From a virus, in UHGV virus genome UHGV-0117027: a DNA stretch of 17,497 nucleotides; one strand, written 5' to 3'. Within the stretch, counting starts at the first letter, position 1, and each line of letters begins with the position of its first letter. Shown here one piece after another: positions 2,955 through 15,423 of this stretch. Both the position numbers and the translations under genes were made by a program. The notes under the pieces are model-generated. The model was not told the origin of the DNA. It was given only the letters and a program-made list of their open reading frames with translations, and made no database searches.

Positions 2955-2966
2955 AACCCGCCTCGA

Positions 2967-3056
2967 TTAATTTTTGTTTTTAAGTGCTTTTAACATTTCT
3001 TCTATGAAGTCCGCATAGCGTTCATGTTCGTTGGGACGATAGTTTACGTTTTTCAT
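2967..3056 (-). CDS. small ORF (29 aa), first gene of the leftward cassette
   Basis: ATG at 3056 preceded by AGAGGA SD with 7-nt spacer; encodes MKNVNYRPNEHERYADFIEEMLKALKNKN; stop 12 nt before the secreted-protein start. Too short for composition-based support. Confidence 0.3.
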   Translation of the reverse strand: MKNVNYRPNEHERYADFIEEMLKALKNKN

Positions 3057-3133
3057 TTTCTTATCCTCTTTTGCTTCCTCCGGTTTATCCGGTCCTTTCA
3101 AACCCCTTTGCTCTATCCCTTTCCTTTAGTCTC

Positions 3134-3162
3134 TTTATACAAAATGGAGTCGTTATAGTAAA
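3134..3162 (-). promoter_or_regulatory. candidate sigma70-type promoter for the leftward cassette
   Basis: Minus strand reads TTTACT (+ coords 3157-3162), 17-bp spacer, TATAAA (+ coords 3134-3139). By-eye match only. Confidence 0.3.
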
Positions 3163-3163
3163 G

Positions 3164-3202
3164 ACATTTTGTATAAAATAGATACACAGATCACAAAAGT
3201 GG
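3164..3202 (+). promoter_or_regulatory. conserved bipartite element upstream of the tape-measure gene
   Basis: ACATTTTGTATA (3164-3175), 8 bp, ACACAGATCACAAAA (3184-3198) then GTGGAG (SD). The same 12-mer and 15-mer recur exactly at 15342-15353 and 15367-15381. Confidence 0.5.
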
Positions 3203-3212
3203 AGTAACAATC

Positions 3213-5426
3213 ATGACAACAAATGTGGGCACGATTGAGTATACCGTTGACGCAAAAACCGAGCGGTTACTAGTAGCTCAACGCAAGGCGGAGGACTCGT
3301 TTGATAAAATCGAGCAAGGCGCTAAACGCACCGATAAATCAGTGCAGTCACTTAATACCACGATAAGTAATTTATCCAAAGCCGTGAACATTGGAATGAT
3401 GGTCATGGCTGCAAAAAAATTCCTGGAGATCGCAGATAACGTAAATCTGCTACGCGCCAGGGTAACACGACTATCAAGCGGCATTGCTGACGCAAAATCG
3501 AATTTTGACGGGATTGTTCAGATATCGAATCGCACAGGGATGAGTGTTCAAAGCACCGGGAAGCTGTGGGAAAGCCTAAAAGCCAGCCTACAGGATACCA
3601 GCGCGACCAGTCAGCAGGTATTGCAGCTTACCGACTCGCTTCAGAAAATAGGCCGTATCGGAGGTAGCTCATCAGATGAAATGTCAAACGCACTTCGCCA
3701 GTTAGGGCAGTCCCTGACGGGTGGCATTGTTCGCGCGGAAGAATACAACTCTGTGCTTGAAAACATGCCCGAAGTATGGCGACGCGTCGCCAAACAAATG
3801 GGGATCTCGATGGGTGAACTTCGCGCAAGAATGCTTGATGGTAAGCTCACCGCCGAGGATGTTACCAATTCAATTCTTGCTGGCGCAGAAGACATAGAGA
3901 AGGACTTCGCAAAACTGCCAACAACAACAGATCAGGCATTTAACGAGCTAAAAAACAACTTCGATCTGTTAATTGACACGCTAAACCAAACGCTTGGAGT
4001 GTCTGATTTGGTAGTTACTGGTATACAGGCTGTTTCTAGTGAAGTCCAGATGTTATCTGGTTGGTTTAAGTCCCTGGCGAGCGATAGCACGTCATTAACT
4101 GATAAATTGTGGCTATTGGCTGGGGCGTTTGAGGGTATAGTGCCTGGGCTTAGTTTGTTCCGCGCTCAAGCGAAACAGGTTGGATGGTTTGATGGCGGAG
4201 AACAGCCATTTGTTTCCACTCTCCCCACGGGGCAAGCTGGTGTAAGTCGCATAACGTTTAAGCCTCAACCTGGTGGTAAGGGTAAGAAAGGCAAAGGTAA
4301 AAAAACCGGCAAATCAGAAGCCGAGCGCCTTGCGGAACAGGGTGTGCGCATTTCAGATGCATATAACGAAGATTCGGCAGCAATGCGCAAAGCGCTTGAA
4401 TCACAAAAAGCCATAGATGCAGCCTTTAAAGCCGGGAAAATAACCATGCTTGAATACAAAGGCGCAATGAAGGGAATTGGTGATGAATTGCGCGAAACTC
4501 TGGCGGAAATTAACGACCCGATCAATAGGCTGCAAGAAAAATGGGACAAAATGATTCCATCACTGGATCAGAAGCGCGGTGAACTAGACCCAATACAGCA
4601 GGCGCAAAATGAATGGACCGTTCGTAAGCAAATGCTGGAAGATCTTGGCGCTACTGAGCAATATATGAGGGAACAAGAAAGAGCGCACGCACAGGAAATG
4701 CTCACCCTTGAGTGGGAGCGATATAAAGCACAGTCAATGAGCTACAAACTGTTGGGCGATACCGTTGATGCAATGGGCGGATCTGCAACAAATGCGCTTG
4801 TGGGCCTGGTTAACGGCACTCAAAGCTGGCAGCAGGCGCTGGCTAACATTGGCAATACAATCCTTTCCTCCGTTATCGGTACGCTTGTTCAAATGGGGGC
4901 TGAATGGGTCAAGCAGCAATTGATAGGCGAGGCCGCCAGCGCAGCCGCAACAGCTAAAGCATTGGCAGAGGCTACCGCTTTGGGATCTGCGTGGGCTACT
5001 CCTGCATACCTGGCAAACGTAGCCACGATGGGCGGCGCGGCGACCGTGGGGGGTACGAGTCTTGCCACTGGTGTGGCTGGAGCAAAAGCGCTTGGCCTGG
5101 CTGGCGCTCGTTATAACGGCGGTGCGGTGGCTGCGGGCAGCCTCTATAAGGTCGGCGAACACGGTAAACCGGAGATCTTTCAGGCGAGCAATGGGAGTCA
5201 GTACATGATCCCGGGTGACAACGGCAGGGTAATACCAAATCGCGACATTGGTGGTGCTGGTGGTGGTAGCGTTAGCATAAACGCGCCGATTAGTGTTTAC
5301 CCACAAAATGGATGGAGCGATGAGGATGCCAAAAAGCTGCAACAGGACATGGAAAGGATCTGCATGGGCCTGATGCACCGCGAATCATCCAGACCAGGCG
5401 GAATGCTGCAACCTCGCAGGAAATAA
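3213..5426 (+). CDS. tail tape measure protein
   Basis: 737-aa ORF after the chaperone; helical N-terminal two-thirds, a Lys/Gly-rich stretch (KPQPGGKGKKGKGKKTGK) and a Gly/Ala-rich C-terminal region; SD GGAG 9 nt upstream of the ATG. Confidence 0.9.
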   Translation: MTTNVGTIEYTVDAKTERLLVAQRKAEDSFDKIEQGAKRTDKSVQSLNTTISNLSKAVNIGMMVMAAKKFLEIADNVNLLRARVTRLSSGIADAKSNFDGIVQISNRTGMSVQSTGKLWESLKASLQDTSATSQQVLQLTDSLQKIGRIGGSSSDEMSNALRQLGQSLTGGIVRAEEYNSVLENMPEVWRRVAKQMGISMGELRARMLDGKLTAEDVTNSILAGAEDIEKDFAKLPTTTDQAFNELKNNFDLLIDTLNQTLGVSDLVVTGIQAVSSEVQMLSGWFKSLASDSTSLTDKLWLLAGAFEGIVPGLSLFRAQAKQVGWFDGGEQPFVSTLPTGQAGVSRITFKPQPGGKGKKGKGKKTGKSEAERLAEQGVRISDAYNEDSAAMRKALESQKAIDAAFKAGKITMLEYKGAMKGIGDELRETLAEINDPINRLQEKWDKMIPSLDQKRGELDPIQQAQNEWTVRKQMLEDLGATEQYMREQERAHAQEMLTLEWERYKAQSMSYKLLGDTVDAMGGSATNALVGLVNGTQSWQQALANIGNTILSSVIGTLVQMGAEWVKQQLIGEAASAAATAKALAEATALGSAWATPAYLANVATMGGAATVGGTSLATGVAGAKALGLAGARYNGGAVAAGSLYKVGEHGKPEIFQASNGSQYMIPGDNGRVIPNRDIGGAGGGSVSINAPISVYPQNGWSDEDAKKLQQDMERICMGLMHRESSRPGGMLQPRRK

Positions 5427-5432
5427 ACAAAA

Positions 5433-5460
5433 CCCCGGCACAATGCCGGGGCTATTTTAT
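5433..5460. terminator. hairpin terminator, candidate bidirectional, between convergent genes
   Basis: CCCCGGC (5433-5439), loop ACAAT, GCCGGGG (5445-5451), then TATTTTAT; on the other strand the hairpin is followed by TTTTGTTTATTT. The minus-strand 59-aa gene ends at 5457. Confidence 0.7.
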
Positions 5461-5636
5461 TCAATTTCATCATTTTTAAATTCGCCGTTTGCATAAAGCT
5501 GCAATGCTCTTATCAGTTCGTCAGCTTGCTTTTTGTCTATTACAATCATCTCGCAGTCGCTAACGATCCATAATCTTCCGTCATCTTCAATACTAAGATC
5601 AATCCTTCTGCATTCTTCAGTATCATGAATAATCAT
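5457..5636 (-). CDS. small protein (59 aa), unknown function
   Basis: ATG at 5636 with GAAGG SD 7 nt upstream; hand-translated as MIIHDTEECRRIDLSIEDDGRLWIVSDCEMIVIDKKQADELIRALQLYANGEFKNDEIE; last gene of a four-gene leftward operon. Confidence 0.5.
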   Translation of the reverse strand: MIIHDTEECRRIDLSIEDDGRLWIVSDCEMIVIDKKQADELIRALQLYANGEFKNDEIE

Positions 5637-5674
5637 TATAAACCTTCATCATGTTATTGATTTCGTGAATAAAT

Positions 5675-5845
5675 TTACTCAAATCTTGTATATCCTCTCT
5701 CAATTTTCCCTCCGTGTACACTTCTGGCAAATACCGCGTCAGTACACCTAAAAAATGGGCATGTATATGTATCCCCTTTACTATCCATATATTTTAGCAC
5801 CCATGCCATGCGTTTTACGTTGCTTTTATTTGCCGGATTTTTCAT
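5675..5845 (-). CDS. small protein (56 aa), unknown function
   Basis: Internal ATG at 5845 with GGAGG SD (8-nt spacer), preferred over the TTG start of the 64-aa track ORF; MKNPANKSNVKRMAWVLKYMDSKGDTYTCPFFRC... Confidence 0.45.
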   Translation of the reverse strand: MKNPANKSNVKRMAWVLKYMDSKGDTYTCPFFRCTDAVFARSVHGGKIERGYTRFE

Positions 5846-5876
5846 TTTGTTTTCCTCCGCAACATTCAAATCCGTG

Positions 5877-6131
5877 TCACTTGTGAGCGCCTTTCACCCC
5901 ACAGTGCCTGTTATATTCCAGGTGGTCAATAATTAACCACATCTTTAAATCTTCGCTGAATAACCGCCAATCGGGGTTGATGTCAAATTTATAACCGTAG
6001 CCATCGCGTAATTTTTTGGGGTTGGCCTCTTTTTTAAGAAAAGCATCAAGCAATTGCTTTCCTTTCTTGATGATCCGGTCCTGTGCGTTTTTCTGTGCTT
6101 TCAGGTTTTTACCAATCGCCACCAATTTCAT
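5877..6131 (-). CDS. small basic protein (84 aa); RelE/YafQ-like toxin fold is a weak by-eye candidate
   Basis: ATG at 6131 (track ORF starts at an upstream GTG). Lys-rich N-terminal half, then NPDWRLF strand, MWLIID strand and C-terminal EYNRH; recalled YafQ/RelE-type toxins share the PDW...strand...basic/His C-terminus pattern. Not verified by alignment. Confidence 0.5.
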   Translation of the reverse strand: MKLVAIGKNLKAQKNAQDRIIKKGKQLLDAFLKKEANPKKLRDGYGYKFDINPDWRLFSEDLKMWLIIDHLEYNRHCGVKGAHK

Positions 6132-6149
6132 AACACACCCCACAATCCA

Positions 6150-6305
6150 TTAGTTGACCACTTTCAGGAAGAAATCACGGTACTCGTTTTCCTTCGCATT
6201 CATCATGAATTGACCGTATTTGAATGCGTCATCAAAGCCTTTGACTATCGCCACTTCCACCTGTTCGAATGCGTTGTTCAGCATTACCACTACATAACGC
6301 TTCAT
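6150..6305 (-). CDS. small protein (51 aa), first gene of cassette
   Basis: ATG at 6305 preceded by AAAGGAGG SD (5-nt spacer); hand-translated as MKRYVVVMLNNAFEQVEVAIVKGFDDAFKYGQFMMNAKENEYRDFFLKVVN; stop 18 nt before the 84-aa gene start. Confidence 0.5.
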   Translation of the reverse strand: MKRYVVVMLNNAFEQVEVAIVKGFDDAFKYGQFMMNAKENEYRDFFLKVVN

Positions 6306-6346
6306 ATTGGCCTCCTTTGTCGGTACTGCTTTTTCTTCTTGCTTAC

Positions 6347-6375
6347 TATATACATCTTGTCACGCCTTATGTGAA
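6347..6375 (-). promoter_or_regulatory. candidate sigma70-type promoter for the four-gene leftward cassette
   Basis: Minus strand reads TTCACA (+ coords 6370-6375), 17-bp spacer, TATATA (+ coords 6347-6352), about 40 nt upstream of the first cassette start codon. Confidence 0.35.
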
Positions 6376-6390
6376 GCCATTTTGTAAACT
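6376..6390. promoter_or_regulatory. conserved intergenic element GCCATTTTGTAAACT
   Basis: 14 of 15 identical to GCCATTTTGTTAACT at 7972-7986; both sit at the head of a leftward cassette and contain the ACAAAATGG core on the minus strand. Confidence 0.45.
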
Positions 6391-6474
6391 GGTTATAATT
6401 CTTGTGATGAATTTCTCATTTTTCGCGTAGAAGCGCGTAAAGATGTATGCAATATGTAACTTATAGGGGGAATC

Positions 6475-6828
6475 ATGCCAGAAGTTTTCAGATGGACGCC
6501 GCAAAGAAGCTACAGCGTGACCAGGGAACCAAATGTGTCTGTCGTTAAACTTGGTGATGGTTATGAACAGCGCCAGGCGAAAGGGATTAACACGTTGCTT
6601 GATAGTTATACCCTGGTTTTCAAAGGCAGTAGCGCGGGATGTGGTGATGGTGGAAACGTGGCGATCCAGGCCGAAGCATTTTTGAGGGCGCGCGGCGCTG
6701 TCGAGGCGTTTTACTGGACTCCATCGATCGACGGGGTGCAAAGGCTTTTCGTTTGCCGTAGCTGGAGCATGACCAAAGACGGGCCTGTGTACACGCTAAA
6801 CGCAACGTTTGAACAAGTTGTTGGCTAA
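6475..6828 (+). CDS. M: minor tail protein M homologue (distal tail protein)
   Basis: 117 aa; N-terminal FRW...V..V.LGDGYEQR and C-terminal ...FEQVV match the lambda gpM pattern as recalled (FRW...FGDGYSQR...EFEQVV); GGGGGA SD upstream. Confidence 0.9.
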   Translation: MPEVFRWTPQRSYSVTREPNVSVVKLGDGYEQRQAKGINTLLDSYTLVFKGSSAGCGDGGNVAIQAEAFLRARGAVEAFYWTPSIDGVQRLFVCRSWSMTKDGPVYTLNATFEQVVG

Positions 6829-6840
6829 TGGGGGGTTGTT

Positions 6841-6981
6841 ATGTACGGGACTTGTGTGGTTGACAAAACTTACGCTTTTACATTGTTTGACGACTATGAG
6901 ATCAACGACCTTACTGTAAAAGCTGACAACGGCGATATATGGTATCTTCACGACGTTGGCGATGGGTACGTGGGGGTGTAG
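6841..6981 (+). CDS. small ORF (46 aa) downstream of M, unknown
   Basis: ATG 6841 preceded by GGGGGG SD (5-nt spacer), 13 nt after the M stop; MYGTCVVDKTYAFTLFDDYEINDLTVKADNGDIWYLHDVGDGYVGV; below the ORF-track length cutoff. Confidence 0.3.
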   Translation: MYGTCVVDKTYAFTLFDDYEINDLTVKADNGDIWYLHDVGDGYVGV

Positions 6982-7033
6982 ATCCCGGGAAGGGAAGGGG
7001 GTTTTATTTTTGGTTGATGGCGTATAAACACGA

Positions 7034-7061
7034 CCCCGCGCGAAGCGGGGTTATTATTATT
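7034..7061. terminator. GC hairpin with T-tract (candidate terminator, possibly bidirectional)
   Basis: CCCCGC (7034-7039), loop GCGAA, GCGGGG (7045-7050), then TTATTATTATT; the minus-strand cassette ends at 7057 inside the T-tract. Confidence 0.5.
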
Positions 7062-7173
7062 CCATTTCCATTAATGCTATATTTTCCGCTATCGTTTTCC
7101 AGTCCAGATCTACAGCATGAACGCCAAATACTATCAATCCCATTATTATTAGCGCCAAAACTTCTATTTTCAT
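7057..7173 (-). CDS. small hydrophobic peptide (38 aa), predicted single-pass membrane peptide
   Basis: ATG at 7173 with AGGTG SD (7-nt spacer); hand-translated as MKIEVLALIIMGLIVFGVHAVDLDWKTIAENIALMEME; the hydrophobic stretch LALIIMGLIVFGV would span a membrane. Confidence 0.4.
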   Translation of the reverse strand: MKIEVLALIIMGLIVFGVHAVDLDWKTIAENIALMEME

Positions 7174-7183
7174 AATCTGTCAC

Positions 7184-7432
7184 CTATAAGTTATCACGCA
7201 GATAATTAACGCCCTTATCAGTGACGAATGAATGGTTAACCTGGTTTTCATCCGTCATGATGATAAATAACTTTTCCTGTAGGTATTTAGCTTTCGGGTA
7301 CAGCGTTAAACAGACCTGGTACAGTATCCCGCGCTCAATCAGCAAATCAATAAATTCGTGTTCATGATAACCAACGAGGCGGGCGGCCTGTTTCAGCGTG
7401 TACACATAATCGCCGTGATTGCGCCGCCCCAT
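7184..7432 (-). CDS. small protein (82 aa) with helix-turn-helix-like segment, putative DNA-binding
   Basis: Start at 7432 overlaps an AGGGGG SD placed on the upstream gene stop; segment TLKQAARLVGYHEHEFIDLLIERGIL resembles an HTH. Family not identified. Confidence 0.55.
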   Translation of the reverse strand: MGRRNHGDYVYTLKQAARLVGYHEHEFIDLLIERGILYQVCLTLYPKAKYLQEKLFIIMTDENQVNHSFVTDKGVNYLRDNL

Positions 7433-7441
7433 GTATCCCCC

Positions 7442-7789
7442 TTATTTATCGAATGCTGCAAGATTATCCATGCAGAAGTCTTTCGCAGCTTTTTCGTATT
7501 CGCGTTTTGCTTCTGGATCGTCAGCCGGGAAACCTTTTGCGTGTATTTCACCAGGGCAAGACTGATCCATAGAGTCTGCAAAATTAACATTGAAGTTAAC
7601 ATTAATATCTTTCGGGTTCATATCTTCCACCTCATCAACTATCTGTACCGGATTAGCAGCATATTTCACTGGATGGCCTAAACTACATTCAAGAATCCTG
7701 CCTTCTTCCAGGGCTACTTCTTCGCTATCAAATAATCCGAAACACTCCTTGCTACCACTTAACCACACATCAAGACTGTATTTTTTCAT
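7442..7789 (-). CDS. acidic protein (115 aa), unknown function
   Basis: Internal ATG at 7789 (MKKYSLDVWLSGSKE...) with GAGG SD, preferred over the longer 149-aa track ORF whose 5' part overlaps the upstream gene in another frame. Confidence 0.55.
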   Translation of the reverse strand: MKKYSLDVWLSGSKECFGLFDSEEVALEEGRILECSLGHPVKYAANPVQIVDEVEDMNPKDINVNFNVNFADSMDQSCPGEIHAKGFPADDPEAKREYEKAAKDFCMDNLAAFDK

Positions 7790-7958
7790 TTTTGTTAGCC
7801 TCATATTTGACAGGTTCGATCTGGTATCCCAAAAGGCGGTCATCCTCAGCAAGTAAAAGCGCGTCAACCAATGCTTCCCCCTCGTCGTCATACAGGGCGA
7901 TAACCTTTTCCCTACCGTCTGTCATGAATACCGTCAACTTCCATGGCTTTTCAGTCAT
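7770..7958 (-). CDS. small acidic protein (62 aa; alternative in-frame start at 7976 gives 68 aa)
   Basis: ATG 7958 with GGAGG SD (6-nt spacer); the in-frame ATG at 7976 also has an AAGGGGAAG SD and lies inside the conserved ACAAAATGG element. Overlaps the next gene by 20 nt. Confidence 0.5.
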   Translation of the reverse strand: MTEKPWKLTVFMTDGREKVIALYDDEGEALVDALLLAEDDRLLGYQIEPVKYEANKNEKIQS

Positions 7959-7971
7959 AACGCACCTCCGC

Positions 7972-7986
7972 GCCATTTTGTTAACT
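7972..7986. promoter_or_regulatory. conserved intergenic element GCCATTTTGTTAACT
   Basis: Near-identical to 6376-6390; a related CCATTTTGG lies at 8035-8043 and an oppositely oriented ATCACAAAATG at 8064-8074. Confidence 0.45.
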
Positions 7987-8063
7987 TCCCCTTCGTTTGA
8001 GTAAAATATACATATTGTAAAAACCATGAACAATCCATTTTGGTGTGATTTAGCGTGACGCAT

Positions 8064-8074
8064 ATCACAAAATG
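8064..8074 (+). promoter_or_regulatory. ATCACAAAATG element 24 nt upstream of the L start
   Basis: Same core as ATCACAAAAGTGG (3190-3202, 23 nt before the tape-measure ATG) and ATCACAAAATGG (15373-15384, before the tail-fibre gene). Confidence 0.45.
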
Positions 8075-8087
8075 ACAAGGTGAGAAA

Positions 8088-8792
8088 ATGCGCAATATTC
8101 CGAGAGAGATGATTATTGATTCCGTCGATGCCGGAGTTGGCGCGGTCATTGACTTATTTGAACTGGACCTTACTCCCCTGGGAGGCGAGGTTATCCGCTT
8201 CCATTCCGGCGCGAACGGCTATTACGGCCAGGTTATCTGGAAGGGAGTAGCTTACAACAGCTACCCGATCGAGACGACGGGCTTCGAAATGAAAAACGAG
8301 GGCGTTTATTCGCGGCCTCAAATGGTTGTAGCCAATATCGGCGGGCTAATCACAGGGATGAATAACGATTTCAACGACCTGCGAGGAATGAAGGTTACGC
8401 GCCGCCAGGTGGAGGTTAAATACCTGGACGCCGTTAACTTCCCTAACGGCAATCCAGACGCAGATCCATCTATTGAGGCTGTATCTTTTTACGTCGTTGA
8501 AGCAATGAGCGAAGAAACAGCGGATCAGGTGCAATATGAATTGTCAACGCCAATTGATGCAGATAAAGCCGTTATCCCAGGGCGCACCATCCTTGCTGAC
8601 GTTTGTCAGTGGCAATACAGAGGCGACGGGTGCATGTATTCTGGCGGCCCGGTCGCAACTGATAAAGATACACCAACAAGTGACCCAACGTTAGACAAAT
8701 GCAGCCACCGCCTTAGCGGTTGCCGTTTGCGTTTTCCGCGTCCGGCAGCACTGCCGATCTCCTGTTTTCCTGGTTCCAGCAAGGTAGGTTAA
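8088..8792 (+). CDS. L: minor tail protein L homologue
   Basis: 234 aa; segments ...RRQVEVKYLDAVNFPNGNPDADP..., ...PGRTILADVCQWQYRGDGCMYSGGPVATD...DKCS..LSGC closely parallel lambda gpL as recalled, including four C-terminal cysteines (lambda L binds an Fe-S cluster). Confidence 0.9.
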   Translation: MRNIPREMIIDSVDAGVGAVIDLFELDLTPLGGEVIRFHSGANGYYGQVIWKGVAYNSYPIETTGFEMKNEGVYSRPQMVVANIGGLITGMNNDFNDLRGMKVTRRQVEVKYLDAVNFPNGNPDADPSIEAVSFYVVEAMSEETADQVQYELSTPIDADKAVIPGRTILADVCQWQYRGDGCMYSGGPVATDKDTPTSDPTLDKCSHRLSGCRLRFPRPAALPISCFPGSSKVG

Positions 8793-8794
8793 TC

Positions 8795-9526: not shown

Positions 9527-9999
9527 ACGTTGAAACGCCAGCGCAAGGGCTTCGCTTATTGACCGCGCAGAATCAGGAATTCAAGAAGGCGTTTTTAAAT
9601 ACTCCTTTGCGCTTACGAATTGCCGGGAAAGATTACGACGAAAAGACCGCGCCAGCGGCGGTTAATAGCAAATATCCAGATGGAACTACAGTAATTATTG
9701 CGCCAATAGTGGAAGGTGGTATAGCAGGGATCGGCGTTGTCGGCTGGATTATGATTGGAATATCAGTTGTTAGTGTCGCTTTTTCTATTTTTATGTCTCG
9801 CAACATGAAGGTAAAAACATCATCAGAAAGCGCACAGGACAATACCATCACAAATAACACTTATACCAGCGTAGAAAACAAGGTAGGACAGGGTAGACCA
9901 GTGCCTATTCTACTTGGCGAAATGAAAGTAGGTTCAAACGTCGGATCGTTAGGCATAGACACAACCAACAATAAAGACGCTTTAGACGTTGTAAGTTAA
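9469..9999 (+). CDS. I: tail assembly protein I homologue
   Basis: 176 aa; start overlaps the 3' end of K by 58 nt with GGAG SD; hydrophobic central segment and C-terminal QGRPVPILLGEMKVGSNVGS matching lambda gpI (QGNVLPVLYGEMRVGSRVVS) as recalled. Confidence 0.85.
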   Translation: MLKFRFTGNLRRYYSKVCLNVETPAQGLRLLTAQNQEFKKAFLNTPLRLRIAGKDYDEKTAPAAVNSKYPDGTTVIIAPIVEGGIAGIGVVGWIMIGISVVSVAFSIFMSRNMKVKTSSESAQDNTITNNTYTSVENKVGQGRPVPILLGEMKVGSNVGSLGIDTTNNKDALDVVS

Positions 10000-10013
10000 C
10001 AGGAGAATTAACC

Positions 10014-13000
10014 ATGAGTAGCGGCGGCGGCAAAGCAAAAACACCAACATTAATAAATGATAACCTTTATCACAAACAGTTTTATCGTGTGCTGGATATT
10101 ATTTCGGAAGGCCCGATTTATGGCCCTGTCAATACCAGTGCGCCATTAAATAGCGTAATGCTTAATGACACGCCTGTAACTGACGCGAACGGTAATACCA
10201 GCATCCCAGGCGTTAGCGTGGCGTGGCGTAATGGTACGTTAGATCAATCACCGATTAACGGTTTTAATGCCATCGAATCCACGGTAATGGTTAACGCACA
10301 GGTGAAACACGACACGCCGCTGGTAAGGACCGTATCAGATCCGAACGTGACGCGAGTCCGGTTAAATATTGGTGTGGATTCACTGGTGGAAAGCGATAGC
10401 CAATCAAACCAGAAAGAAACATCTGTCATTATGGCGATCGACGTTAAACCGTCCTCATCCTCAACATGGTCGTCTATTAAGGCCGTGCAAATAGGTCCAG
10501 GTAAAATCAGCGGAGAATACCTTGAAGCGCATATTATTGATGCGCCAGATGAAAAGCCGTTTGATATTCGCGTTCGCCGCGTAACCGCTGATAGCACAGG
10601 TGATCTATTGCAGAATGATACGCGGTGGAGTAGCTACAGCGAAATAATCGACGATAATTTGTCTTATCCTCACACTGCTGTAGCAGGCGCGGTAATTGAT
10701 CACGATCAGTATACTGACACACCTACACGCACTTATCACCTGCGTGGGCTTATTGTTGACGTGCCTGATAACTACGACCCGGAAACGCGCACTTATTCCG
10801 GTTTATGGCTTGGCGGCTTTAAACAGGCTTACACTAATAACCCTGCGTGGATCTTTCGTTACCTGGTTAAAAACGAGCGTTTCGGCCTTGCCCGCCATGC
10901 TGGTTATATCGACGTTGACGACGGCGCATTATACACACTTTCCCAATACTGCGACCAGTTGGTCGATGATGGTTACGGTGGCCTTGAGCCTCGCGTGACG
11001 CTTAATGCGTACATAACAGAGCAAATGAGCGCCCGCGATTTGCTGGACAATATCGCCGGGATGTTCCGTGGCATCGCGTTATGGGACGGGCAACGTCTTA
11101 CCGTAATGATTGATGCACCGCAAGATCCAATCGCCACCATTACGAATGCAAACGTCGTTGATGGCGCGTTCACTCGTTCGAGTATCGCCCGTGCGGAATG
11201 CTACAACGCCGTGATCGTATCCTGGACTGACCCGGAAAACGGGTGGGAGCAGTCAAAAGAGTATGTAGCAGATGATGAGCTAATCGCCCGCGATGGTTAC
11301 AACGAAACCACGATGGAGGCGTTCGGCTGTACGTCACGCGGGCAAGCGTACCGCGCGGGCAAATGGCTGATAGAAACAGCAAAACGCGAGCCGTCAAAAT
11401 TCACGTTTAAAATGGCACGTGACGCGATTCACTTTACGCCAGGGGATATAGTCGAAATCCTCGACAATAACCGCGCAGGTGCGCGTTTAGGTGGGCGTAT
11501 CGTGGCGAACAATGGAAACGTGATAACGGTCGATAAGGTTGACAGCGACTATATCACAGCAGGCGACACCATCAGCTTACTCGACAGCGACGGCAAATTT
11601 AAAAAACATCAGATTACTGGTGTAAACGGAAACGAAATCACACTAGCGGCGGCCCCGGCATGGATTCGGAACGGTACTGTATTTGCTGTATCCACCGAAG
11701 CGGAAAAACCCGTTTTATGCCGGATCACCAGTGTAGCCGAAACCGAAAATAATAGCGTGTATACCATCGAAGCAGCGCAACATGACCCGAACAAACAAGC
11801 GGTAGTCGATGAAGGCGCGATATTTGAAATCAACAACGACACGCTTAATCACTTCCGTGTCCCGAACATTGAAAACCTGAAAGTGGTAAACATCGGATCT
11901 GAAACAGTTCAATGCCGAGCTACATGGGAAACACAGACAACCACGCATCGCATGACATTCGAGATCCGCATATACAATACTGATGGTGCGGTGGTTAAAA
12001 GCTACGAAACAACGAAATACAGTTATGATTTTTATGGTATTGACGCTGGCGCGTATTCGTTAGGCGTTCGCGGAAGAAACGATACTGGCATGAAAGGCGC
12101 TGAAAGCATTGTTGATCTTGTTATTGGTGCTCCAGCCGCGCCAGTTGGCGTAAATTGGGTTCCAGGCGTATTTCAGGCGACCGTGTACCCGATAAGCAAA
12201 ACCACGCTTACTACCGATACGTCATATGAATTCTACTATGCAGGGGAAAATCAGATCACAGATCCGGCAAAAATAACCACGTCGGCACAGTTTACCGGGC
12301 GCGGGTATCAGTGGACGTTCGGCGGCATGAATACGGGCCATACTTATTACGTTTATGTGCGCACTCGTAATGCTTTTGGTGTGTCTGATTTCGTCGAGGC
12401 ATCAGGTAAGCCAACAGAGGATTTTGACGAAATCACTGATTACGTTACAAAGGATGTAATGGAATCAGAGCAATTCAAGGAGATGATTAGCGACATTAAA
12501 GATCTTGGTGAGCGCACTGATATTGTAGAAGGAGCTACCGAAGACCTTAAAATAGCTACAGAGGATCTTAAAGCTGACACAGATACACTTAAAAAAGACA
12601 CCGAAGACCTTTATAAAAAAGTCGAAGAAAACGCCGATGAAATAGGCAAACATGAGGTAAGAATAGACTCATTAGAGGTATCAAACGAAAACGTTAACAA
12701 CGAACTGGCACAGGCAAAAGCAAGTTTACAAAACGCTTCGCTTGCTCTGATCAATAACTCGCTTGCTCAAACTAACACGCGGGTTACTCTTACCGCTCAA
12801 TATAAGAAAGGTCGCAACGAAACAAAGGCACAGATTGACCGCATCGACAACGTTATCGCAGAGGAGAAAAAAGCGACAGCGGAATCACTGGAAACCATCA
12901 CAGCCGAAATAAATACGATAGACTCAAACATCAAAGGAGAAATAGCCCGCGTAGACAAAGCAATCGCAACCGAAACGCAGGCGAGAACGGAAGCTATAAG

Positions 13001-14066
13001 CAACGTTAACGCCAGTATCAGCAGCCTGGAAAACAAAACTGATGCGAGCGTTTCTCGTCTCGATCAAGCTATCGCTGACGAATCAAGCGCCCGCGCTCAG
13101 GCAATATCAGGAATCAGTGCGGAGCTTGGTCTTGTTGAAAATGAGGTTGATAAAAACAGCAACGAAATAGATCAGGCAAAAGCAAGTCTGCAAAACGCCT
13201 CGATTGCACTTATCAACAACTCAATAGCGCAAAGCAAGATGAGCACCGTTATTGAGGCGAAGTACAGGAAAGGCCAGACAAAAACAAAAGCGGAAATAGC
13301 AAGGATCGACACAGCAATAGCAGACGAAACCCAGGCCCGCGCGGAGGCTATAGCATCACTTGAAGCCAATATTAATGAAAACATTTCAGCAAAAATAACA
13401 GATATATCAACGGCGCTCGCAACTCACGAGGCATCAAGTGCTGAAAAATTTGTTCAAATATCGGCATCTTTCGACGATGTAAACTCAAGTATCACGGAAT
13501 GGTCACAGGCCATGACAACGACTGACGAGGCATTATCAACCAAAATTGACCAGTTAAAAGTAACTATTGACGGGAACACAACAGCCATAGAGACGACATC
13601 GAAAGCGTTAACGGACTTTAAGGGGAATGTCGATGCATCATACTCTATTAAGATCGCGACAGACAGCAGAGGCGTTAAATATGCTACCGGCATGTCGCTC
13701 GGCCTTACTGGTAGCGGGACTAATGTCCAATCGCAGTGTATTTTCCTCGTTGATCGCTTCGTGTTAATGACCGCCGCAAACGGCACATATACAACGCCTT
13801 TCTATGTCACTGGCGGCGCAATGTATGTACGTGAAGCGTTTATTAAGGACGCATCAATCACTAACGCGAAAATAGGTTCTTACATCCAATCAAATAACTA
13901 TGTTTCCGGCAGCACAGGCTGGAAACTTGATAAATCCGGTACATTCGAAAACTACGGATCAGTAAGCGGTGAAGGAGCAATGAAATGGACGAACACAACT
14001 ATCTCAGTAAAAGATGGTAATGGCGTGTTACGCGTCCAGATTGGGCGAATTACCGGATCATGGTAG
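10014..14066 (+). CDS. J: host specificity / central tail fibre protein J homologue with extended coiled-coil stalk
   Basis: 1350-aa ORF directly after I with AGGAG SD; large N-terminal tail-tip region, a heptad-rich repetitive stalk (about aa 800-1200) and a beta-rich C-terminal domain; position and size match lambda J. Confidence 0.9.
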   Translation: MSSGGGKAKTPTLINDNLYHKQFYRVLDIISEGPIYGPVNTSAPLNSVMLNDTPVTDANGNTSIPGVSVAWRNGTLDQSPINGFNAIESTVMVNAQVKHDTPLVRTVSDPNVTRVRLNIGVDSLVESDSQSNQKETSVIMAIDVKPSSSSTWSSIKAVQIGPGKISGEYLEAHIIDAPDEKPFDIRVRRVTADSTGDLLQNDTRWSSYSEIIDDNLSYPHTAVAGAVIDHDQYTDTPTRTYHLRGLIVDVPDNYDPETRTYSGLWLGGFKQAYTNNPAWIFRYLVKNERFGLARHAGYIDVDDGALYTLSQYCDQLVDDGYGGLEPRVTLNAYITEQMSARDLLDNIAGMFRGIALWDGQRLTVMIDAPQDPIATITNANVVDGAFTRSSIARAECYNAVIVSWTDPENGWEQSKEYVADDELIARDGYNETTMEAFGCTSRGQAYRAGKWLIETAKREPSKFTFKMARDAIHFTPGDIVEILDNNRAGARLGGRIVANNGNVITVDKVDSDYITAGDTISLLDSDGKFKKHQITGVNGNEITLAAAPAWIRNGTVFAVSTEAEKPVLCRITSVAETENNSVYTIEAAQHDPNKQAVVDEGAIFEINNDTLNHFRVPNIENLKVVNIGSETVQCRATWETQTTTHRMTFEIRIYNTDGAVVKSYETTKYSYDFYGIDAGAYSLGVRGRNDTGMKGAESIVDLVIGAPAAPVGVNWVPGVFQATVYPISKTTLTTDTSYEFYYAGENQITDPAKITTSAQFTGRGYQWTFGGMNTGHTYYVYVRTRNAFGVSDFVEASGKPTEDFDEITDYVTKDVMESEQFKEMISDIKDLGERTDIVEGATEDLKIATEDLKADTDTLKKDTEDLYKKVEENADEIGKHEVRIDSLEVSNENVNNELAQAKASLQNASLALINNSLAQTNTRVTLTAQYKKGRNETKAQIDRIDNVIAEEKKATAESLETITAEINTIDSNIKGEIARVDKAIATETQARTEAISNVNASISSLENKTDASVSRLDQAIADESSARAQAISGISAELGLVENEVDKNSNEIDQAKASLQNASIALINNSIAQSKMSTVIEAKYRKGQTKTKAEIARIDTAIADETQARAEAIASLEANINENISAKITDISTALATHEASSAEKFVQISASFDDVNSSITEWSQAMTTTDEALSTKIDQLKVTIDGNTTAIETTSKALTDFKGNVDASYSIKIATDSRGVKYATGMSLGLTGSGTNVQSQCIFLVDRFVLMTAANGTYTTPFYVTGGAMYVREAFIKDASITNAKIGSYIQSNNYVSGSTGWKLDKSGTFENYGSVSGEGAMKWTNTTISVKDGNGVLRVQIGRITGSW
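12711..13634 (+). repeat. in-frame tandem duplication (period 462 nt = 154 codons) inside J
   Basis: CAGGCAAAAGCAAGT...CAAAACGC at 12711 recurs at 13173; protein QAKASLQNASLALINNSLAQ versus QAKASLQNASIALINNSIAQ; shorter R[IVL]D-x-[AV]IA-x-E..AR.EAI units occur at least four times. Confidence 0.6.
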
Positions 14067-14072
14067 AATTAA

Positions 14073-14102
14073 GAGGCCGACTTGTTCGGCCTCAGTTTTA
14101 TT
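14073..14102 (+). terminator. rho-independent terminator / attenuator after J
   Basis: GAGGCCG (14073-14079), loop ACTTGTT, CGGCCTC (14087-14093), then AGTTTTATT; the SD of the next gene (GGAGG 14105-14109) follows immediately. Confidence 0.6.
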
Positions 14103-14116
14103 ATGGAGGTGTAACT

Positions 14117-14428
14117 ATGGATACTTTCGGCGTGGCAACATGGGACGCCAACGGCAACGCTAATAACTACGGCATCAAGCCATCCGTCGTGGTTGGCTAT
14201 ATTTCCTTGTCTTCCGGGCAAGTGTCAGGCACATATAATTTTACCGTTCCTACAGGATGTAAATTATCTTATGCCATGACGCTTGATTATGGCACAACAT
14301 CATCAACGCGTAGAAAGATCAGTATTTCCGGCGGTACTGTTTCCATTTCCTCAGCAGGGGATACGGTGGGCGCTAATATATGGCCCGCATCGCAATGTGA
14401 ACTGGTTATTTTTACGGAGAACGCATAA
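14117..14428 (+). CDS. small beta-rich protein (103 aa), tail-associated, unknown function
   Basis: ATG 14117 with GGAGG SD (7-nt spacer); stop TAA abuts the next ATG (TAAATG); N-terminus MDTFGVATWDANGNANN resembles that of the following gene. Confidence 0.55.
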   Translation: MDTFGVATWDANGNANNYGIKPSVVVGYISLSSGQVSGTYNFTVPTGCKLSYAMTLDYGTTSSTRRKISISGGTVSISSAGDTVGANIWPASQCELVIFTENA

Positions 14429-15028
14429 ATGGCTACTTTCGGCGCTTATTTACGTTTAAGTAATGGCAATATTTTCGTAACTCCAGATTCGACACCTATG
14501 TGCCTTTATTCACGGGTTGCTCTCAATTCAAGCCAACAGCAAACAATAGCCGTCCCCAATGGGAAGCCTGTAATGGTATTCATAAAAAACACAGACGATA
14601 CCGCTACTGGTGTAGCCTATCGCAATTCATCGTCTACCATAGTGATTCCACCAGGAAACGGTTACGCGTATATATTCAGTATCTTCCCGCAATCGCGTCC
14701 GAAGTGGGGTATGGCTATATGGAACGCTTCCGGTGAACTGGTATTGACAAACGAATCAAGAATATTGACAGACATTGTTACGGTGGGGACAGCCGGATCA
14801 AGTGGTGGAATTTATATCGACCAGACATTATCAGGATCTTATGCGGTAGTGCCTCAGATATTAGGGGCCGTTGTAGGTATGGGTTCTGCGACAATATATA
14901 CAGAGGCATACTACAACGGCAGCACTACACGAATTCGCGGGAAGATGGTTGGTAGCTTGCAACAGATTTACGGTTACATTAATCACGGGAACGCTATCAC
15001 CGCCATTAAAACCGACGCCTATGATTAA
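14429..15028 (+). CDS. beta-rich protein (199 aa), paralogue-like partner of the upstream gene, unknown function
   Basis: Translationally coupled to the upstream gene; N-terminus MATFGAYLRLSNGN...; Ser/Thr/Gly/Asn-rich like fibre or adhesin domains. Confidence 0.6.
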   Translation: MATFGAYLRLSNGNIFVTPDSTPMCLYSRVALNSSQQQTIAVPNGKPVMVFIKNTDDTATGVAYRNSSSTIVIPPGNGYAYIFSIFPQSRPKWGMAIWNASGELVLTNESRILTDIVTVGTAGSSGGIYIDQTLSGSYAVVPQILGAVVGMGSATIYTEAYYNGSTTRIRGKMVGSLQQIYGYINHGNAITAIKTDAYD

Positions 15029-15264
15029 TTCAGTTCCGGGCAATCCGTTTTCTTGAAGTGGTCAACGCTTACCCATTGGAAGTTAAACGGATACCCGGCC
15101 TTAACCATTTTATGACCGCCAACATCCGCGACACCGAAGACTGCAACCGCATATTCATTACCGCCAGCCTGATAAATTGCCGTGCATTCACGTTTCGGCA
15201 TATCAGCACAACCAACCATACCAGCGACCATTGCAGCTATAGCGATATTTTTAAAGCCTTTCAT
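15025..15264 (-). CDS. small lipoprotein (79-aa precursor), candidate Cor/Llp-type superinfection exclusion protein
   Basis: ATG at 15264 with GGAGGA SD (7-nt spacer), preferred over the far-upstream track start at 15408; MKGFKNIAIAAMVAGMVG-C: signal peptide plus lipobox-like Cys, mature part about 60 aa with two more Cys. Divergent from the tail-fibre gene. Confidence 0.6.
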   Translation of the reverse strand: MKGFKNIAIAAMVAGMVGCADMPKRECTAIYQAGGNEYAVAVFGVADVGGHKMVKAGYPFNFQWVSVDHFKKTDCPELN

Positions 15265-15341
15265 TGTCTTATCCTCCATTGTTCCGTCGGTTGTAGTATC
15301 CATAAACATCGTTTTCTCAACATTGATATAAATCAATAAAT

Positions 15342-15384
15342 ACATTTTGTATAGGTCAGGAATGTAACACAGATCACAAAATGG
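15342..15384 (+). promoter_or_regulatory. conserved bipartite element upstream of the tail-fibre gene
   Basis: ACATTTTGTATA (15342-15353), 13 bp, ACACAGATCACAAAA (15367-15381) then TGG; exact copies of the two blocks at 3164-3175 and 3184-3198. Confidence 0.5.
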
Positions 15385-15423
15385 TAAAATTACCAGGTTA
15401 ATTAACATAATGGAGTCATTGCG

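Follow-up and report, generated by a model that had tools for sequence, protein, structure and literature searches.

What role does the short word ACAAAATG play in the phage DNA in which it recurs, on both strands, in all four divergent intergenic regions? The stretch analysed here (the window, 17,497 nucleotides) comes from an E. coli prophage of the mEp021-like (mEpimmI) group and represents its tail region. It contains 12 copies of ACAAAATG against 1.40 expected, a number reached in none of 200 dinucleotide-preserving shuffles, and five copies of the 9-mer ACAAAATGG against 0.27 expected (0/200 shuffles reached five). Non-coding DNA makes up 8.7% of the window, yet holds 8 of the 12 copies, at a density of 5.3 per kb compared with 0.25 per kb in coding DNA (binomial P ~1e-6). 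The initial annotation had described the word as intergenic throughout, with no copy inside a gene. Its positions were all found in the sequence, one with a small correction (the plus-strand copy lies at 8067-8074, not 8066), as was the one-mismatch variant CATTTTGG at 8036-8043. However, five exact copies had been missed, at 2666(-), 4546(+), 5303(+), 5843(-) and 8808(+). Because four of these are intragenic (one in the 2457-2954 gene, two in the tape measure gene and one in the K gene), the description does not hold for the whole window, although the non-coding bias is strong. The copy at 5843(-) provides the ATG of a small unannotated reverse ORF. In mEp021, ACAAAATG is the most enriched intergenic 8-mer, with 13 copies in 6.3 kb of intergenic DNA versus 2 in 47.5 kb of coding DNA.

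The same prophage encodes, ~26 kb upstream of the window, a Rep021-type repressor that is lambda-CI-like, combining an N-terminal HTH_3 domain with a C-terminal S24 peptidase domain. Rep021 confers immunity, and its operators were left undefined in the mEpimmI paper (PMC11893012); for the related epsilon34 repressor, the predicted operator is WTACRAWWTGTAT (Villafane et al. 2008, PMC2629481). In the early-promoter regions that flank the repressor gene of mEp021, ACAAAATG was the sole common repeat besides the nut boxA element. It also adjoins the repressor gene in unrelated phages whose repressors carry the recognition helix GIT[KQ]GG[LI].HWLN.RREP, namely Klebsiella KPP5665-2, Salmonella ST64T, Erwinia Midgardsormr38 and Vibrio phage P2, which have in common only a repressor with this helix, and the word.

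We then considered 47 prophage loci from other genera, selected solely via the repressor N-terminal domain. An operator was present beside the repressor gene in 46 of them. It takes the form of an 11-17 bp pseudo-palindrome, (W)TAC-N5-GTA(W), with the ideal sequence TACAAAATGTA, in which ACAAAATG(G) represents the A/T-rich centre plus one arm. In nearly all 47 loci TAC-N5-GTA lies at ~-80 and -21 from the repressor start, a fixed placement that spans Enterobacterales, Vibrio and Pseudomonas, and the middle site of this upstream array is found family-wide at ~-48 to -38 from the start codon. The 88 sites near the repressor start amount to 18.7 per kb, compared with ~0.2 per kb in more distal flanks. 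Paired sites in these phages and loci typically lie 25 bp from each other; in at least 14 of the 47 loci, pairs with exactly this spacing follow the repressor gene, the middle site often being TACAAAATGGA. Related repressor/operator systems have arrays at both early promoters flanking the repressor, with neighbouring sites 25-26 or 30-34 bp apart. The suggestion of a regulator site is thereby given a concrete form, the word being the core of the operator of the phage's own CI-like repressor family, to which Rep021 would bind. The proposed organisation as inverted pairs needs rewording: since the site is itself pseudo-palindromic, the orientation of the 8-mer means little and the spacing between neighbours is the meaningful geometry, so that pairing stands in the sense of a fixed distance of 25 or 32-37 bp. 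In mEp021 itself, the canonical -80/-48/-21 triplet is missing from the gap that separates the repressor gene from its divergent neighbour; there are imperfect sites at -83 and -48, plus a copy inside repressor codons 3-5. Moreover, a few recognition-helix positions do differ between Rep021 and the outgroup repressors.

A family position weight matrix (PWM) built exclusively from the foreign sites of the 47 loci gave 11 intergenic matches in mEp021, where per-segment shuffles yielded 1.2 (maximum 3). In the window its top scores were 17.4, 15.2, 14.2, 10.5 and 10.4, and the site spacings of 25, 25, 25 and 32-37 bp match those of the family. The bare TAC-N5-GTA pattern was not enriched in the window (3 versus 2.8 expected); hence, the signal requires the A/T-rich centre. 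Five to seven good sites, with 25-bp spacing, overlap the -35 and -10 elements predicted for divergent promoters. These promoters are sigma-70 consensus predictions from our own PWM scan, of which a stricter scan recovers just one. In the recurring layout one site abuts the upstream edge of the -35 and another, at a distance of 25 bp, overlaps the -10, the same layout as at the ST64T early promoter beside the repressor gene. The earlier idea of a promoter element is thus borne out in so far as sites overlap predicted -35/-10 hexamers, but no single register fits contact with RNA polymerase.

In the first region, operator R1a (TACAAAATGGA, 3138..3148, PWM 10.5) overlaps the -10 and spacer of the predicted promoter P_left1 (TTTACT-17-TATAAA, 3134..3162, minus strand, score 8.4) and lies at ~-41 of a weak rightward promoter; it is invariant in 7 phages and in 24/24 homology-selected loci. 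The conserved operator R1b (GACATTTTGTA, 3163..3173, PWM 14.2) is 25 bp from R1a and abuts the P_left1 -35. P_left1 is predicted to serve the reverse cassette starting at 3056, and in relatives the junction 15-25 bp downstream of its -10 leads into one of at least five different cassettes. In the second region, the weak operator R2b (TACATCTTGTC, 6351..6361, PWM 7.3), within a conserved block, overlaps the -10 of predicted P_left2 (TTCACA-17-TATATA, 6347..6375, minus strand, score 9.1), which would serve the reverse cassette 5457-6305. Operator R2a (GCCATTTTGTA, 6376..6386, PWM 8.8), 25 bp from R2b, abuts the P_left2 -35 and sits in the spacer of predicted P_right2 (GTGAAG-17-TATAAT, 6371..6399, plus strand, score 10.4), which points toward tail gene M at 6475. 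Among the homology-selected loci listed, R2a precedes the M start by ~99 bp, and it has the variant form CCATTTCGT in 3/7 phages; all loci with full flanks have a family match of at least 8 within 140 bp upstream of M. A further operator-like site missed earlier (TGCAATATGTA, 6448..6458, PWM 10.4) is directly upstream of the M ribosome-binding site, and its counterpart in some relatives is TACAAAATGTA or TACAATATGTA (score 13.7).

The third region contains the strong operator R3b (TACATATTGTA, 8009..8019, PWM 15.2), also missed earlier, which has perfect arms and an 11-mer identical in all group-1 loci inspected. R3b overlaps the -10 of predicted P_left3 (TTGTTC-17-TATATT, 8005..8033, minus strand, score 9.0; 12.4 for the mEp021 orthologue) and the start region of predicted P_right3 (TTGTTA-18-TAAAAT, 7978..8007, plus strand, score 9.0). 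P_left3 is predicted for the reverse cassette 7184-7958, which includes a KilAC antirepressor-like gene, and P_right3 points toward L-K-I-J. The weak site TCCATTTTGGT (8034..8044, PWM 1.7), which contains CATTTTGG, lies 25 bp from R3b and abuts the P_left3 -35, in the register that the upstream operator has at the ST64T early promoter beside the repressor gene. Two core-only weak sites carry the exact 8-mer: GCCATTTTGTT (7972..7982, PWM -2.2), invariant in 7 phages, overlaps the P_right3 -35, and CACAAAATGAC (8066..8076, PWM 1.7), variable among relatives, directly precedes the tail gene L ribosome-binding site.

In the fourth region, the conserved operator R4a (TACATTTTGTA, 15341..15351) has the highest score in the window, 17.4, and matches the family ideal perfectly. 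The promoter region in which it lies is that of the reverse Cor/Lpp lipoprotein cassette. The weak site CACAAAATGGT (15375..15385, PWM 2.5), 34 bp from R4a and invariant in 7 phages, abuts the TGG-TAAAAT extended -10 of predicted P_right4 (ATGTAA-17-TAAAAT with TGn, 15362..15390, plus strand, score 8.0; 8.4 in mEp021), which points toward the side tail fibre gene at 15424. In the RefSeq annotation of an identical prophage, the Cor lipoprotein gene begins at 15408 and would extend over the copies at 15343 and 15376. Judging from the lipobox (MKGFKNIAIAAMVAGMVGC) and 82-aa homologues, the true start is probably near 15264, so both copies are probably intergenic.

Across mEpimmI phages ~15-20 operator copies are dispersed, about three quarters of them away from the repressor flanks, and in many the right arm is degenerate, with TGG in place of TGT. 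The mEp021-like phages have extra arrays in several gaps of the early operon, including that between the N-like gene and erf, and in the tail cluster, where all four divergent intergenic regions carry them. In mEpimmI tail loci there were 4.31 matches per 10 kb, compared with 0.09 in relatives with a 70% identical M protein, and family matches in ST64T are confined to the two operator regions flanking the repressor gene.

We consider it likely that ACAAAATG is the operator core of the lambda-CI-like immunity repressor and that the sites silence the window promoters in the lysogen. From the observed motif statistics, conservation and association of the operator with the repressor family, we infer Rep021 binding, promoter activity and the direction of regulation. 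In a lysogen, repressor dimers would bind operator pairs cooperatively and occlude two sets of promoters: the leftward ones, which serve the reverse-oriented accessory cassettes, and the rightward internal ones, which serve the fibre gene and tail genes M and L-K-I-J; loss of repressor would release all these promoters together. Operators at four divergent promoter regions of the tail cluster, as well as beside the repressor gene, would be an unusual arrangement. The sites at 7972, 8034, 8066 and 15375 keep the centre and have lost both arms (family PWM -2.2 to 2.5), and may therefore be very weak or relics. Cor-type exclusion lipoproteins are usually considered prophage-expressed, which fits poorly with silencing by the immunity repressor.

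This last point bears on a related but rather unlikely scheme, in which the repressor binds but some sites activate: a dimer centred at ~-41 and in contact with the -35 would stimulate the leftward cassette promoters, much as lambda CI at OR2 stimulates PRM, and block the opposite tail promoter, making each region a miniature OR-type switch that keeps the cassette on and the tail off in a lysogen. Four promoters (P_left1, P_left2, P_left3 and the rightward early promoter on the downstream side of the repressor gene) share one arrangement, in which the word is centred at ~-41 and ends exactly 2 nt before the -35, a fixed register typical of class II activation; the family-wide middle site upstream of the repressor gene and the expected prophage expression of Cor/Lpp exclusion genes also agree with it. 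However, the same promoters carry a -10 site that is often stronger (R3b 15.2 versus 1.7; mEp021 R1 18.8 versus 10.9), the order of strength in R1 flips between the window and mEp021, and the rightward early promoter, necessarily repressed in a lysogen, has the same -41 arrangement.

That fixed -35 register, and the adjoining of -10-like hexamers in other promoters, could instead reflect an intrinsic element for host RNA polymerase (a proximal UP-element subsite or spacer) copied along with promoters. At -45 to -38 the word fits 7/9 positions of the proximal UP consensus, which Estrem and colleagues are said to have given in 1999 as AAAAAARNR. We regard this as improbable: the word is found in either orientation and in no fewer than four registers with respect to promoters, its TG is one base off the extended -10 position, and the invariant C and TGG are not UP features. 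Moreover, it does not rise above background in the tail loci of related enterobacterial phages, and across genera it tracks one repressor gene at fixed distances. Equally improbable, in our estimate, is that another regulator reads the sites, be it the MarR-like gp08, which is conserved in and restricted to the mEpimmI group, a Cro analogue, which would be expected to share the repressor's operators, or host OmpR, whose sites resemble ACATTTTG (ACATTTTGAAAC in the ompC C1 site resembles R4a). Yet sites adjoin the repressor gene in Klebsiella, Salmonella, Erwinia and Vibrio phages without gp08, the motif is kept in mEp515 and MagusPhagus where the small winged-helix gp14 is just 36% identical, and a host factor leaves the fixed -80/-21 position at one repressor family unexplained. 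A translational role of the core ATG (tiny uORFs, leaderless or alternative starts), raised in the initial annotation, is the least credible: the motif ATG is a start codon with a Shine-Dalgarno at 5843 and at two mEp021 gene starts, which looks like an ordinary A-rich start context, and that at 7976 is in frame 18 nt upstream of the annotated start 7958, but GGAGGTG between these two ATGs serves the downstream one, intergenic copies lack a Shine-Dalgarno, the word is oriented both with and against transcription, the ORFs that it opens span 2-7 codons and are not conserved, and the same word lies upstream of promoters in other phages.

Read as repressor operators, the sites most closely resemble those of the L/ST64T/epsilon34-type c2 (CI) repressors of P22-like phages, which belong to the same family (HTH_3 + S24) and share the recognition helix at 44% overall identity. 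ST64T has the same operator word: the array that follows its repressor gene contains two copies of TACATTTTGTA at 25-bp spacing. It also shares the layout in which one site precedes the -35 and another covers the -10. All five good ST64T sites flank the repressor, whereas about three quarters of the mEpimmI sites lie elsewhere, including the four tail clusters, and often have the degenerate right arm. Lambda CI is a homologous repressor (best PDB match 3BDN, E = 4e-19), the lambda OL/OR operators are likewise pseudo-symmetric with one strong and one weak half and neighbours ~24 bp apart, and the gene order here is the mirror image, with the repressor followed by an N-like gene with its own promoter and nut site. 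Lambda differs in operator sequence and in having only six operators, all at the immunity region, and no cro gene is evident adjoining the repressor here. In mycobacteriophage L5 (gp71 stoperators) and in P1 (C1), one immunity repressor has roughly 20-30 scattered, mostly intergenic sites, some in gaps inside operons, as with the N-like gene-erf and other early-operon sites here. Those repressor families are unrelated, and L5 and P1 sites are asymmetric, in L5 oriented with transcription, whereas the sites here are pseudo-palindromic, occur in either orientation and overlap predicted promoters rather than acting only as roadblocks. Phage morons have their own promoter and terminator and are usually considered autonomously expressed in the lysogen. 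The reverse accessory cassettes resemble them in being flanked by bidirectional terminators and swapped among relatives, with junctions that adjoin the conserved promoter/operator block, but the cassette promoters here carry predicted immunity-repressor operators.

The 8-mer ACAAAATG, which the initial annotation had described as recurring in the window's four divergent intergenic regions (R1 to R4), occurred 12 times on the two strands. In 200 dinucleotide-preserving shuffles of the 17,497-base window the mean was 1.40 and the maximum 5, and none reached 12. Its 9-mer form, ACAAAATGG, was present in five copies, compared with 0.27 expected in the window. All but one of the positions originally listed were correct, the exception being 8066, which should read 8067. 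The list was incomplete, as five copies had been missed (2666 (−), 4546 (+), 5303 (+), 5843 (−) and 8808 (+)), and the statement that no copy lies inside a gene did not hold, since four of these five are within genes. The copy at 5843 forms the ATG of a small reverse ORF with a GAGGA Shine-Dalgarno sequence. The intergenic bias itself was borne out, with 8 of the 12 copies in the non-coding 8.7% of the window (5.3 vs 0.25 per kb; binomial P ~1e-6). It also extended to the complete genome of mEp021, where ACAAAATG ranked first among the intergenic 8-mers (6.3 kb of intergenic sequence contained 13 copies, and 47.5 kb of coding sequence 2). Once one-mismatch variants were counted, mEp021 had ~21 intergenic sites, located on both sides of the gene for Rep021, its lambda-CI-like immunity repressor, in several early-operon gaps and in R1 to R4. 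The nut boxA element aside, ACAAAATG was the sole repeat that the early-promoter regions on the two sides of the mEp021 repressor gene had in common. The reading of the copies as inverted pairs was retained only in part, because CAAAATG is nearly self-complementary and the orientation of the 8-mer therefore has little meaning.

The window shared ~85% identity with the tail regions of seven 'mEpimmI' temperate coliphages, mEp013 and mEp021 among them. The E. coli M15 prophage adjoining dgcM (ydaM) was identical to it over the first 11,703 bases and nearly so beyond; in this prophage an IS903B is located within the side tail fibre gene (L004 15520–16488 vs window 15424–17220), which is intact in the window (598 aa). 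The + strand tail cluster is broken by four reverse (− strand) accessory cassettes, which give rise to the four divergent intergenic regions: 2457–3056 at R1, 5457–6305 at R2, 7184–7958 at R3, including a KilAC antirepressor-like gene, and 15025–15264 at R4, encoding a Cor-type lipoprotein. Bidirectional terminator-like hairpins, GC-rich and with T runs on both strands, were detected at the distal ends of three cassettes (5431–5453, 7032–7052 and 14073–14093) and 3' of the tail tube gene (1730–1745); none was found beside the fourth cassette, 2457–3056.

Rep021 contains HTH_3 and Peptidase_S24 domains. The repressor was 96–100% identical to that of mEp021 among sequenced phages, and 94–100% identical mutually in the M15 prophage and all seven sequenced relatives. 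Heteroimmune E. coli prophages were sought for a covariation test, and all the relatives found had the same repressor. The only paper on the mEpimmI group reports that Rep021 confers immunity, states that its operators are undefined and does not mention the ACAAAATG motif (PMC11893012). More distant homologues were identified in Klebsiella phage KPP5665-2 (51% identity), Erwinia phage Midgardsormr38 (46%), Salmonella phage ST64T/L (c2, 44%) and Vibrio phage P2 (40%). The recognition helix of Rep021, ITKGGLSHWLNGRREP, aligned with that of the ST64T, Klebsiella, Erwinia and Vibrio homologues, and all four phages kept both the helix GIT[KQ]GG..HWLN.RREP and the same word beside the repressor gene. 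In ST64T, aagTACATTTTGTATTGAC and aagTACATTTTGTATTGT lie 25 bp apart 3' of the repressor gene, the first copy abutting the −35 TTGACG and the second overlapping the −10, while TACATTTCGTA lies upstream of the gene. The Erwinia phage carries TACATTTCGTA, TACAAAATGTG and TACAGATTGTA upstream of its repressor gene, and the Klebsiella phage has TACATTCCGTA, TCCATTTTGTA and TACGTTATGTA upstream and TACATAACGTA and TACAAAACGGA, 25 bp apart, downstream. As the same word stands beside repressor genes in unrelated phages, we read the site as a pseudo-palindrome, TAC-N5-GTA, with an A/T-rich centre, of which ACAAAATG represents the centre and parts of both arms. Independently of our survey of the Rep021 family, WTACRAWWTGTAT was predicted in the epsilon34 genome paper as the operator of a related repressor (closest relatives L and VT2-Sa; PMC2629481).

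The family survey was performed on one genome per bacterial species, searched with the repressor N-terminal domain, and yielded 47 loci, all outside E. coli, from Enterobacterales, Vibrio, Pseudomonas and other bacteria. TAC-N5-GTA was present at ~−80 and ~−21 of the repressor start in almost every one of these loci. The 100 bp upstream of the repressor genes contained 88 such sites (18.7 per kb), compared with ~0.2 per kb in the distal flanks, and neighbouring upstream sites were spaced 25–34 bp apart. The middle upstream site was often TACAAAATGGA, exactly the mEpimmI form, TACAAAATGTA was among the commonest 11-mers, and at least 14 of the 47 loci had exact 25-bp pairs 3' of the repressor gene. 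In mEp021 and the M15 prophage, beyond the window, TACAAAATGGA abuts the −35 of the rightward early promoter and CACGGGGCGTA follows 25 bp on. Relative to the repressor start, both have imperfect sites at −83 and −48, and the canonical −80/−48/−21 triplet was not reproduced upstream of their repressor gene. Literature searches for the 10–11-mers returned nothing relevant, and a scan of viral contigs for TACAAAATGGNTTGAC gave mostly chance matches, the 15-base pattern being too short.

A first position weight matrix (PWM) from 16 sites was too weak and was superseded by a family PWM of 17 columns based on 131 sites from non-E. coli prophages only. With this matrix, all five matches scoring ≥10 in ST64T, and most of those in the Klebsiella phage, lay within the two operator regions, one on either side of the repressor gene. 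The mEp021 genome had 11 intergenic matches ≥10, compared with 1.2 (maximum 3) when coding and intergenic segments were each shuffled with their own composition kept. The mEpimmI phages had 15–19 PWM matches per genome, and the M15 prophage ~21, distributed over its left arm, early right arm and tail region; 15 of the ~21 fall outside annotated genes. In the window, 5 of 17,481 positions scored ≥10: sites R4a (15341–15351, TACATTTTGTA, 17.4), R3b (8009–8019, TACATATTGTA, 15.2), R1b (3163–3173, GACATTTTGTA, 14.2) and R1a (3138–3148, TACAAAATGGA, 10.5), and a new site absent from the initial annotation (6448–6458, TGCAATATGTA, 10.4). Sites R2a (6376–6386, GCCATTTTGTA) and R2b (6351–6361, TACATCTTGTC) scored 8.8 and 7.3, respectively. 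Two of the best sites, at 8009 and 6448, are without the exact 8-mer. The family consensus was not matched at 7972, 8034, 8066 and 15375, where the centre is kept and the arms are degenerate (PWM −2.2 to 2.5). The copies of ACAAAATG inside genes scored −2.4 to 4.8 and are probably non-functional. The bare TAC-N5-GTA pattern showed no enrichment in the window. Sites are 25 bp apart in R1 (3138 to 3163) and R2 (6351 to 6376), 37, 25 (8009 to 8034) and 32 bp (8034 to 8066) apart in R3 and 34 bp apart in R4 (15341 to 15375); the 25-bp and 32–34-bp gaps are within the family range, and the 37-bp gap is slightly wider. A second short word, GATCACA, which contains a Dam site, was observed at 3190–3196, 8063–8069 (ATATCACA at 8062–8069) and 15372–15378, just 5' of the weak core-only sites and upstream of the + strand genes. 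It is part of CRP-like TGTGA-N6-TCACA arrangements at 8051–8069 and 15361–15379, and at R1 only its ATCACA part is conserved.

The sites were conserved within the group. In loci chosen by tail protein M homology only, mEpimmI phages had 6.1 copies of ACAAAATG per 10 kb, compared with a background level of 0.32 in distant relatives whose M protein is ~70% identical; the corresponding densities of PWM matches in tail loci were 4.31 and 0.09 per 10 kb. Each of the 24 homology-selected loci had the R1 and R2 sites, and all those inspected had TACATATTGTA at R3. The perfect R1 inverted pair, TATACAAAATG-N18-CATTTTGTATA, was present in 44 viral contigs, with the N18 spacer in every case; these were mostly ~50–57 kb, the rest being either fragments below this size or longer prophage contigs. 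Footprints were not resolved by column-wise comparison of the group, as the intergenic regions are conserved throughout. The cassette left of R1 (window 3057–3135; L010–L053) was wholly different among relatives, in at least five unrelated versions. The R1 cassette junction always lay 15–25 bp left of R1a, and because of this constancy the conserved R1 promoter/operator block seems to be a boundary for cassette exchange. HNH endonuclease genes were observed between tail genes I and J in mEp021 and mEp515 (L002 12668–13234; L005 6080–6583), and mEp021 has a second one ahead of the helicase gene. Both insertions are missing from the window's phage, and the operator beside the helicase gene is kept with or without the insertion.

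Promoters were predicted with a simple sigma-70 PWM made here, and one was also called by a separate scan. On the − strand, P_left1 (3162–3134, TTTACT-17-TATAAA) would serve the cassette starting at 3056, P_left2 (6375–6347, TTCACA-17-TATATA) the cassette 5457–6305 and P_left3 (8033–8005, TTGTTC-17-TATATT) the cassette 7184–7958. On the + strand, P_right2 (6371–6399, GTGAAG-17-TATAAT) would serve tail gene M, P_right3 (7978–8007, TTGTTA-18-TAAAAT) L-K-I-J and P_right4 (15362–15390, ATGTAA-17-TAAAAT) the side tail fibre gene. At the predicted P_left1–3, and at the phage's rightward early promoter 3' of the repressor gene, one site stops 2 nt short of the −35, and its partner 25 bp farther downstream covers the two leading bases of the −10. 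The ST64T early promoter beside the repressor gene has this same architecture. The sites also fall in the spacer, −35 or start region of the opposite predicted promoter, so that one bound dimer pair would block both divergent promoters.

The analysis shows the motif statistics, the conservation, the site geometry and the link between this operator and this repressor type across the family; Rep021 binding, promoter activity and the sign of regulation we infer as follows. In the lysogen, Rep021 dimers would occupy the site pairs cooperatively and would keep silent both the internal rightward tail promoters and the promoters of the reverse cassettes, including those of the KilAC antirepressor-like gene and the Cor-type lipoprotein. 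Loss of the repressor would free all of these promoters immediately, with no need for Q-mediated late transcription. Sites within same-direction early operons, such as those located between the N-like gene and erf and those in other early gaps, may be roadblocks to read-through, like L5 stoperators. Two readings of the tail sites, to which jointly we give an even chance, would be that a CI-type repressor directly gates bidirectional promoter modules in the late (tail) operon, or that each module is an OR-type mini-switch. Under gating, the 'late' region would comprise four repressor-controlled early-type units, combining accessory cassettes as 'lytic conversion' functions, the KilAC antirepressor-like gene and the Cor-type exclusion lipoprotein among them, with Q-independent promoters for tail genes. 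Under the switch, the repressor would, in the lysogen, activate the cassette and shut off the tail promoter. A minority alternative is that Rep021 activates the cassette promoters from −41, as at lambda PRM; it would suit expression of Cor in the prophage, but we disfavour it because strong sites cover the −10 of the cassette promoters.

Other readings of the word fared less well than an operator bound by Rep021. Among host factor sites, the DnaA box fits at eight of nine positions, but the conserved part lies beyond the box, and the CRP-like TGTGA-N6-TCACA fits only two places. As an UP-element proximal subsite, the word is at −46 to −38 in only four to five promoters, and other copies overlap the −35, the spacer, the −10 or the ribosome-binding site. 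Among phage proteins, gp14 (mEp021, L005 10615–10860) is a small winged-helix protein like the N-terminus of replication initiators, encoded at the head of the leftward early operon, and is not Cro-like; no obvious cro gene adjoins the mEp021 repressor gene. The gp14 gene is divergent from the repressor gene and is exchanged with the replication module in mEp515 and MagusPhagus, where a 36%-identical replacement occurs and the motif is kept, and gp14 was rejected as the binder. The MarR-like gp08 was also rejected, being group-specific and absent from other phages with the operator. The copies did not combine a Shine-Dalgarno sequence at the right distance, a conserved frame and a single mRNA orientation, and the uORF or translational role suggested earlier was abandoned. 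A sigma-70 element in a single register (extended −10 or −35 overlap) was dismissed, as the TG is one base off an extended −10 and registers coexist, as were alternative sigma consensus sequences. Like the DnaA and CRP-like sites, those of IHF, Fis, TyrR, CpxR and OmpR do not account for the link to the repressor gene.

Further sites were observed elsewhere in these genomes. A 16-nt repeat, ACAAAATGG(T/A)(A/T)TGACT, occurs in mEp021 at L005 11173–11188 and 11928–11943; one copy comprises the operator and −35 of the rightward early promoter and the other spans codons 3–8 of the repressor gene, where it is a possible autoregulatory site just 3' of the repressor's own promoter. In the M15 prophage, at a position upstream of the window, a near-perfect operator-like palindrome, TACATAATGTA (PWM 18.5), lies over the major capsid start codon (L003 606266–606276), and TACAAACTGTA (PWM 14.9), conserved in mEp021, lies within the portal gene. 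In the early right operon of mEp021, a block with four motif copies and the promoter-like CCATTTTG-TATACT (L005 20079–20200) is directly 5' of the boxA-like TGCTCTTTAAAAA, the published nutR2 region. This juxtaposition suggests a repressor-controlled internal early promoter feeding the nutR2 antitermination site.

With regard to annotation, several small ORFs and the start codon of Cor seem to be mis-called. The RefSeq start of the Cor exclusion lipoprotein gene is at 15408 (−), with a product of 127 aa (window 15025–15408), and this longer call would put both R4 sites within coding sequence. A start near 15264 is indicated by the signal peptide, the lipobox MKGFKNIAIAAMVAGMVGC and the 82-aa length of homologues. 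The RefSeq prophage annotation also lacks two small reverse ORFs, each preceded by a good Shine-Dalgarno sequence, of 29 aa from ATG 3056 (2967–3056 (−)) and 57 aa from ATG 5845 (5675–5845 (−)); small genes are annotated in relatives at both positions.

Among coliphages isolated from the human gut, mEp021-like phages are reported to match lambdoid phages in frequency, and the analysis proposes an operator sequence for a repressor whose operators had been undefined (PMC11893012). This proposed operator is tied to a repressor/operator family across Enterobacterales, Vibrio and Pseudomonas prophages, and the repressor regulon is predicted to reach the tail gene cluster. If this is correct, the reverse 'moron' cassettes would be directly immunity-controlled rather than autonomous lysogenic-conversion genes, and the repressor would gate promoters internal to parts of the tail operon. 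The conserved regulatory blocks may act as cassette-exchange junctions. The results also bear on the annotation of the Cor start and small ORFs, and existing reagents (a Rep021 expression plasmid and lysogens) allow a direct test.

An operator with its repressor is of an already known kind; what is new is that CI-type operators are dispersed into the tail operon, where they stand at each junction with an accessory cassette. Like L5 stoperators, the mEpimmI sites are dispersed in short intergenic gaps of both genome arms. However, the L5 stoperator is an asymmetric site in one orientation to transcription, whereas the mEpimmI site is pseudo-palindromic, with its 8-mer in either orientation inside operons transcribed in one direction. 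In logic, not in ancestry, the mEpimmI regulon is akin to the multi-operator regulons of P1 C1 and L5 gp71, and either the gating or the mini-switch reading would, if true, extend genome-wide control of the P1 C1 and L5 stoperator type to the classical CI family.
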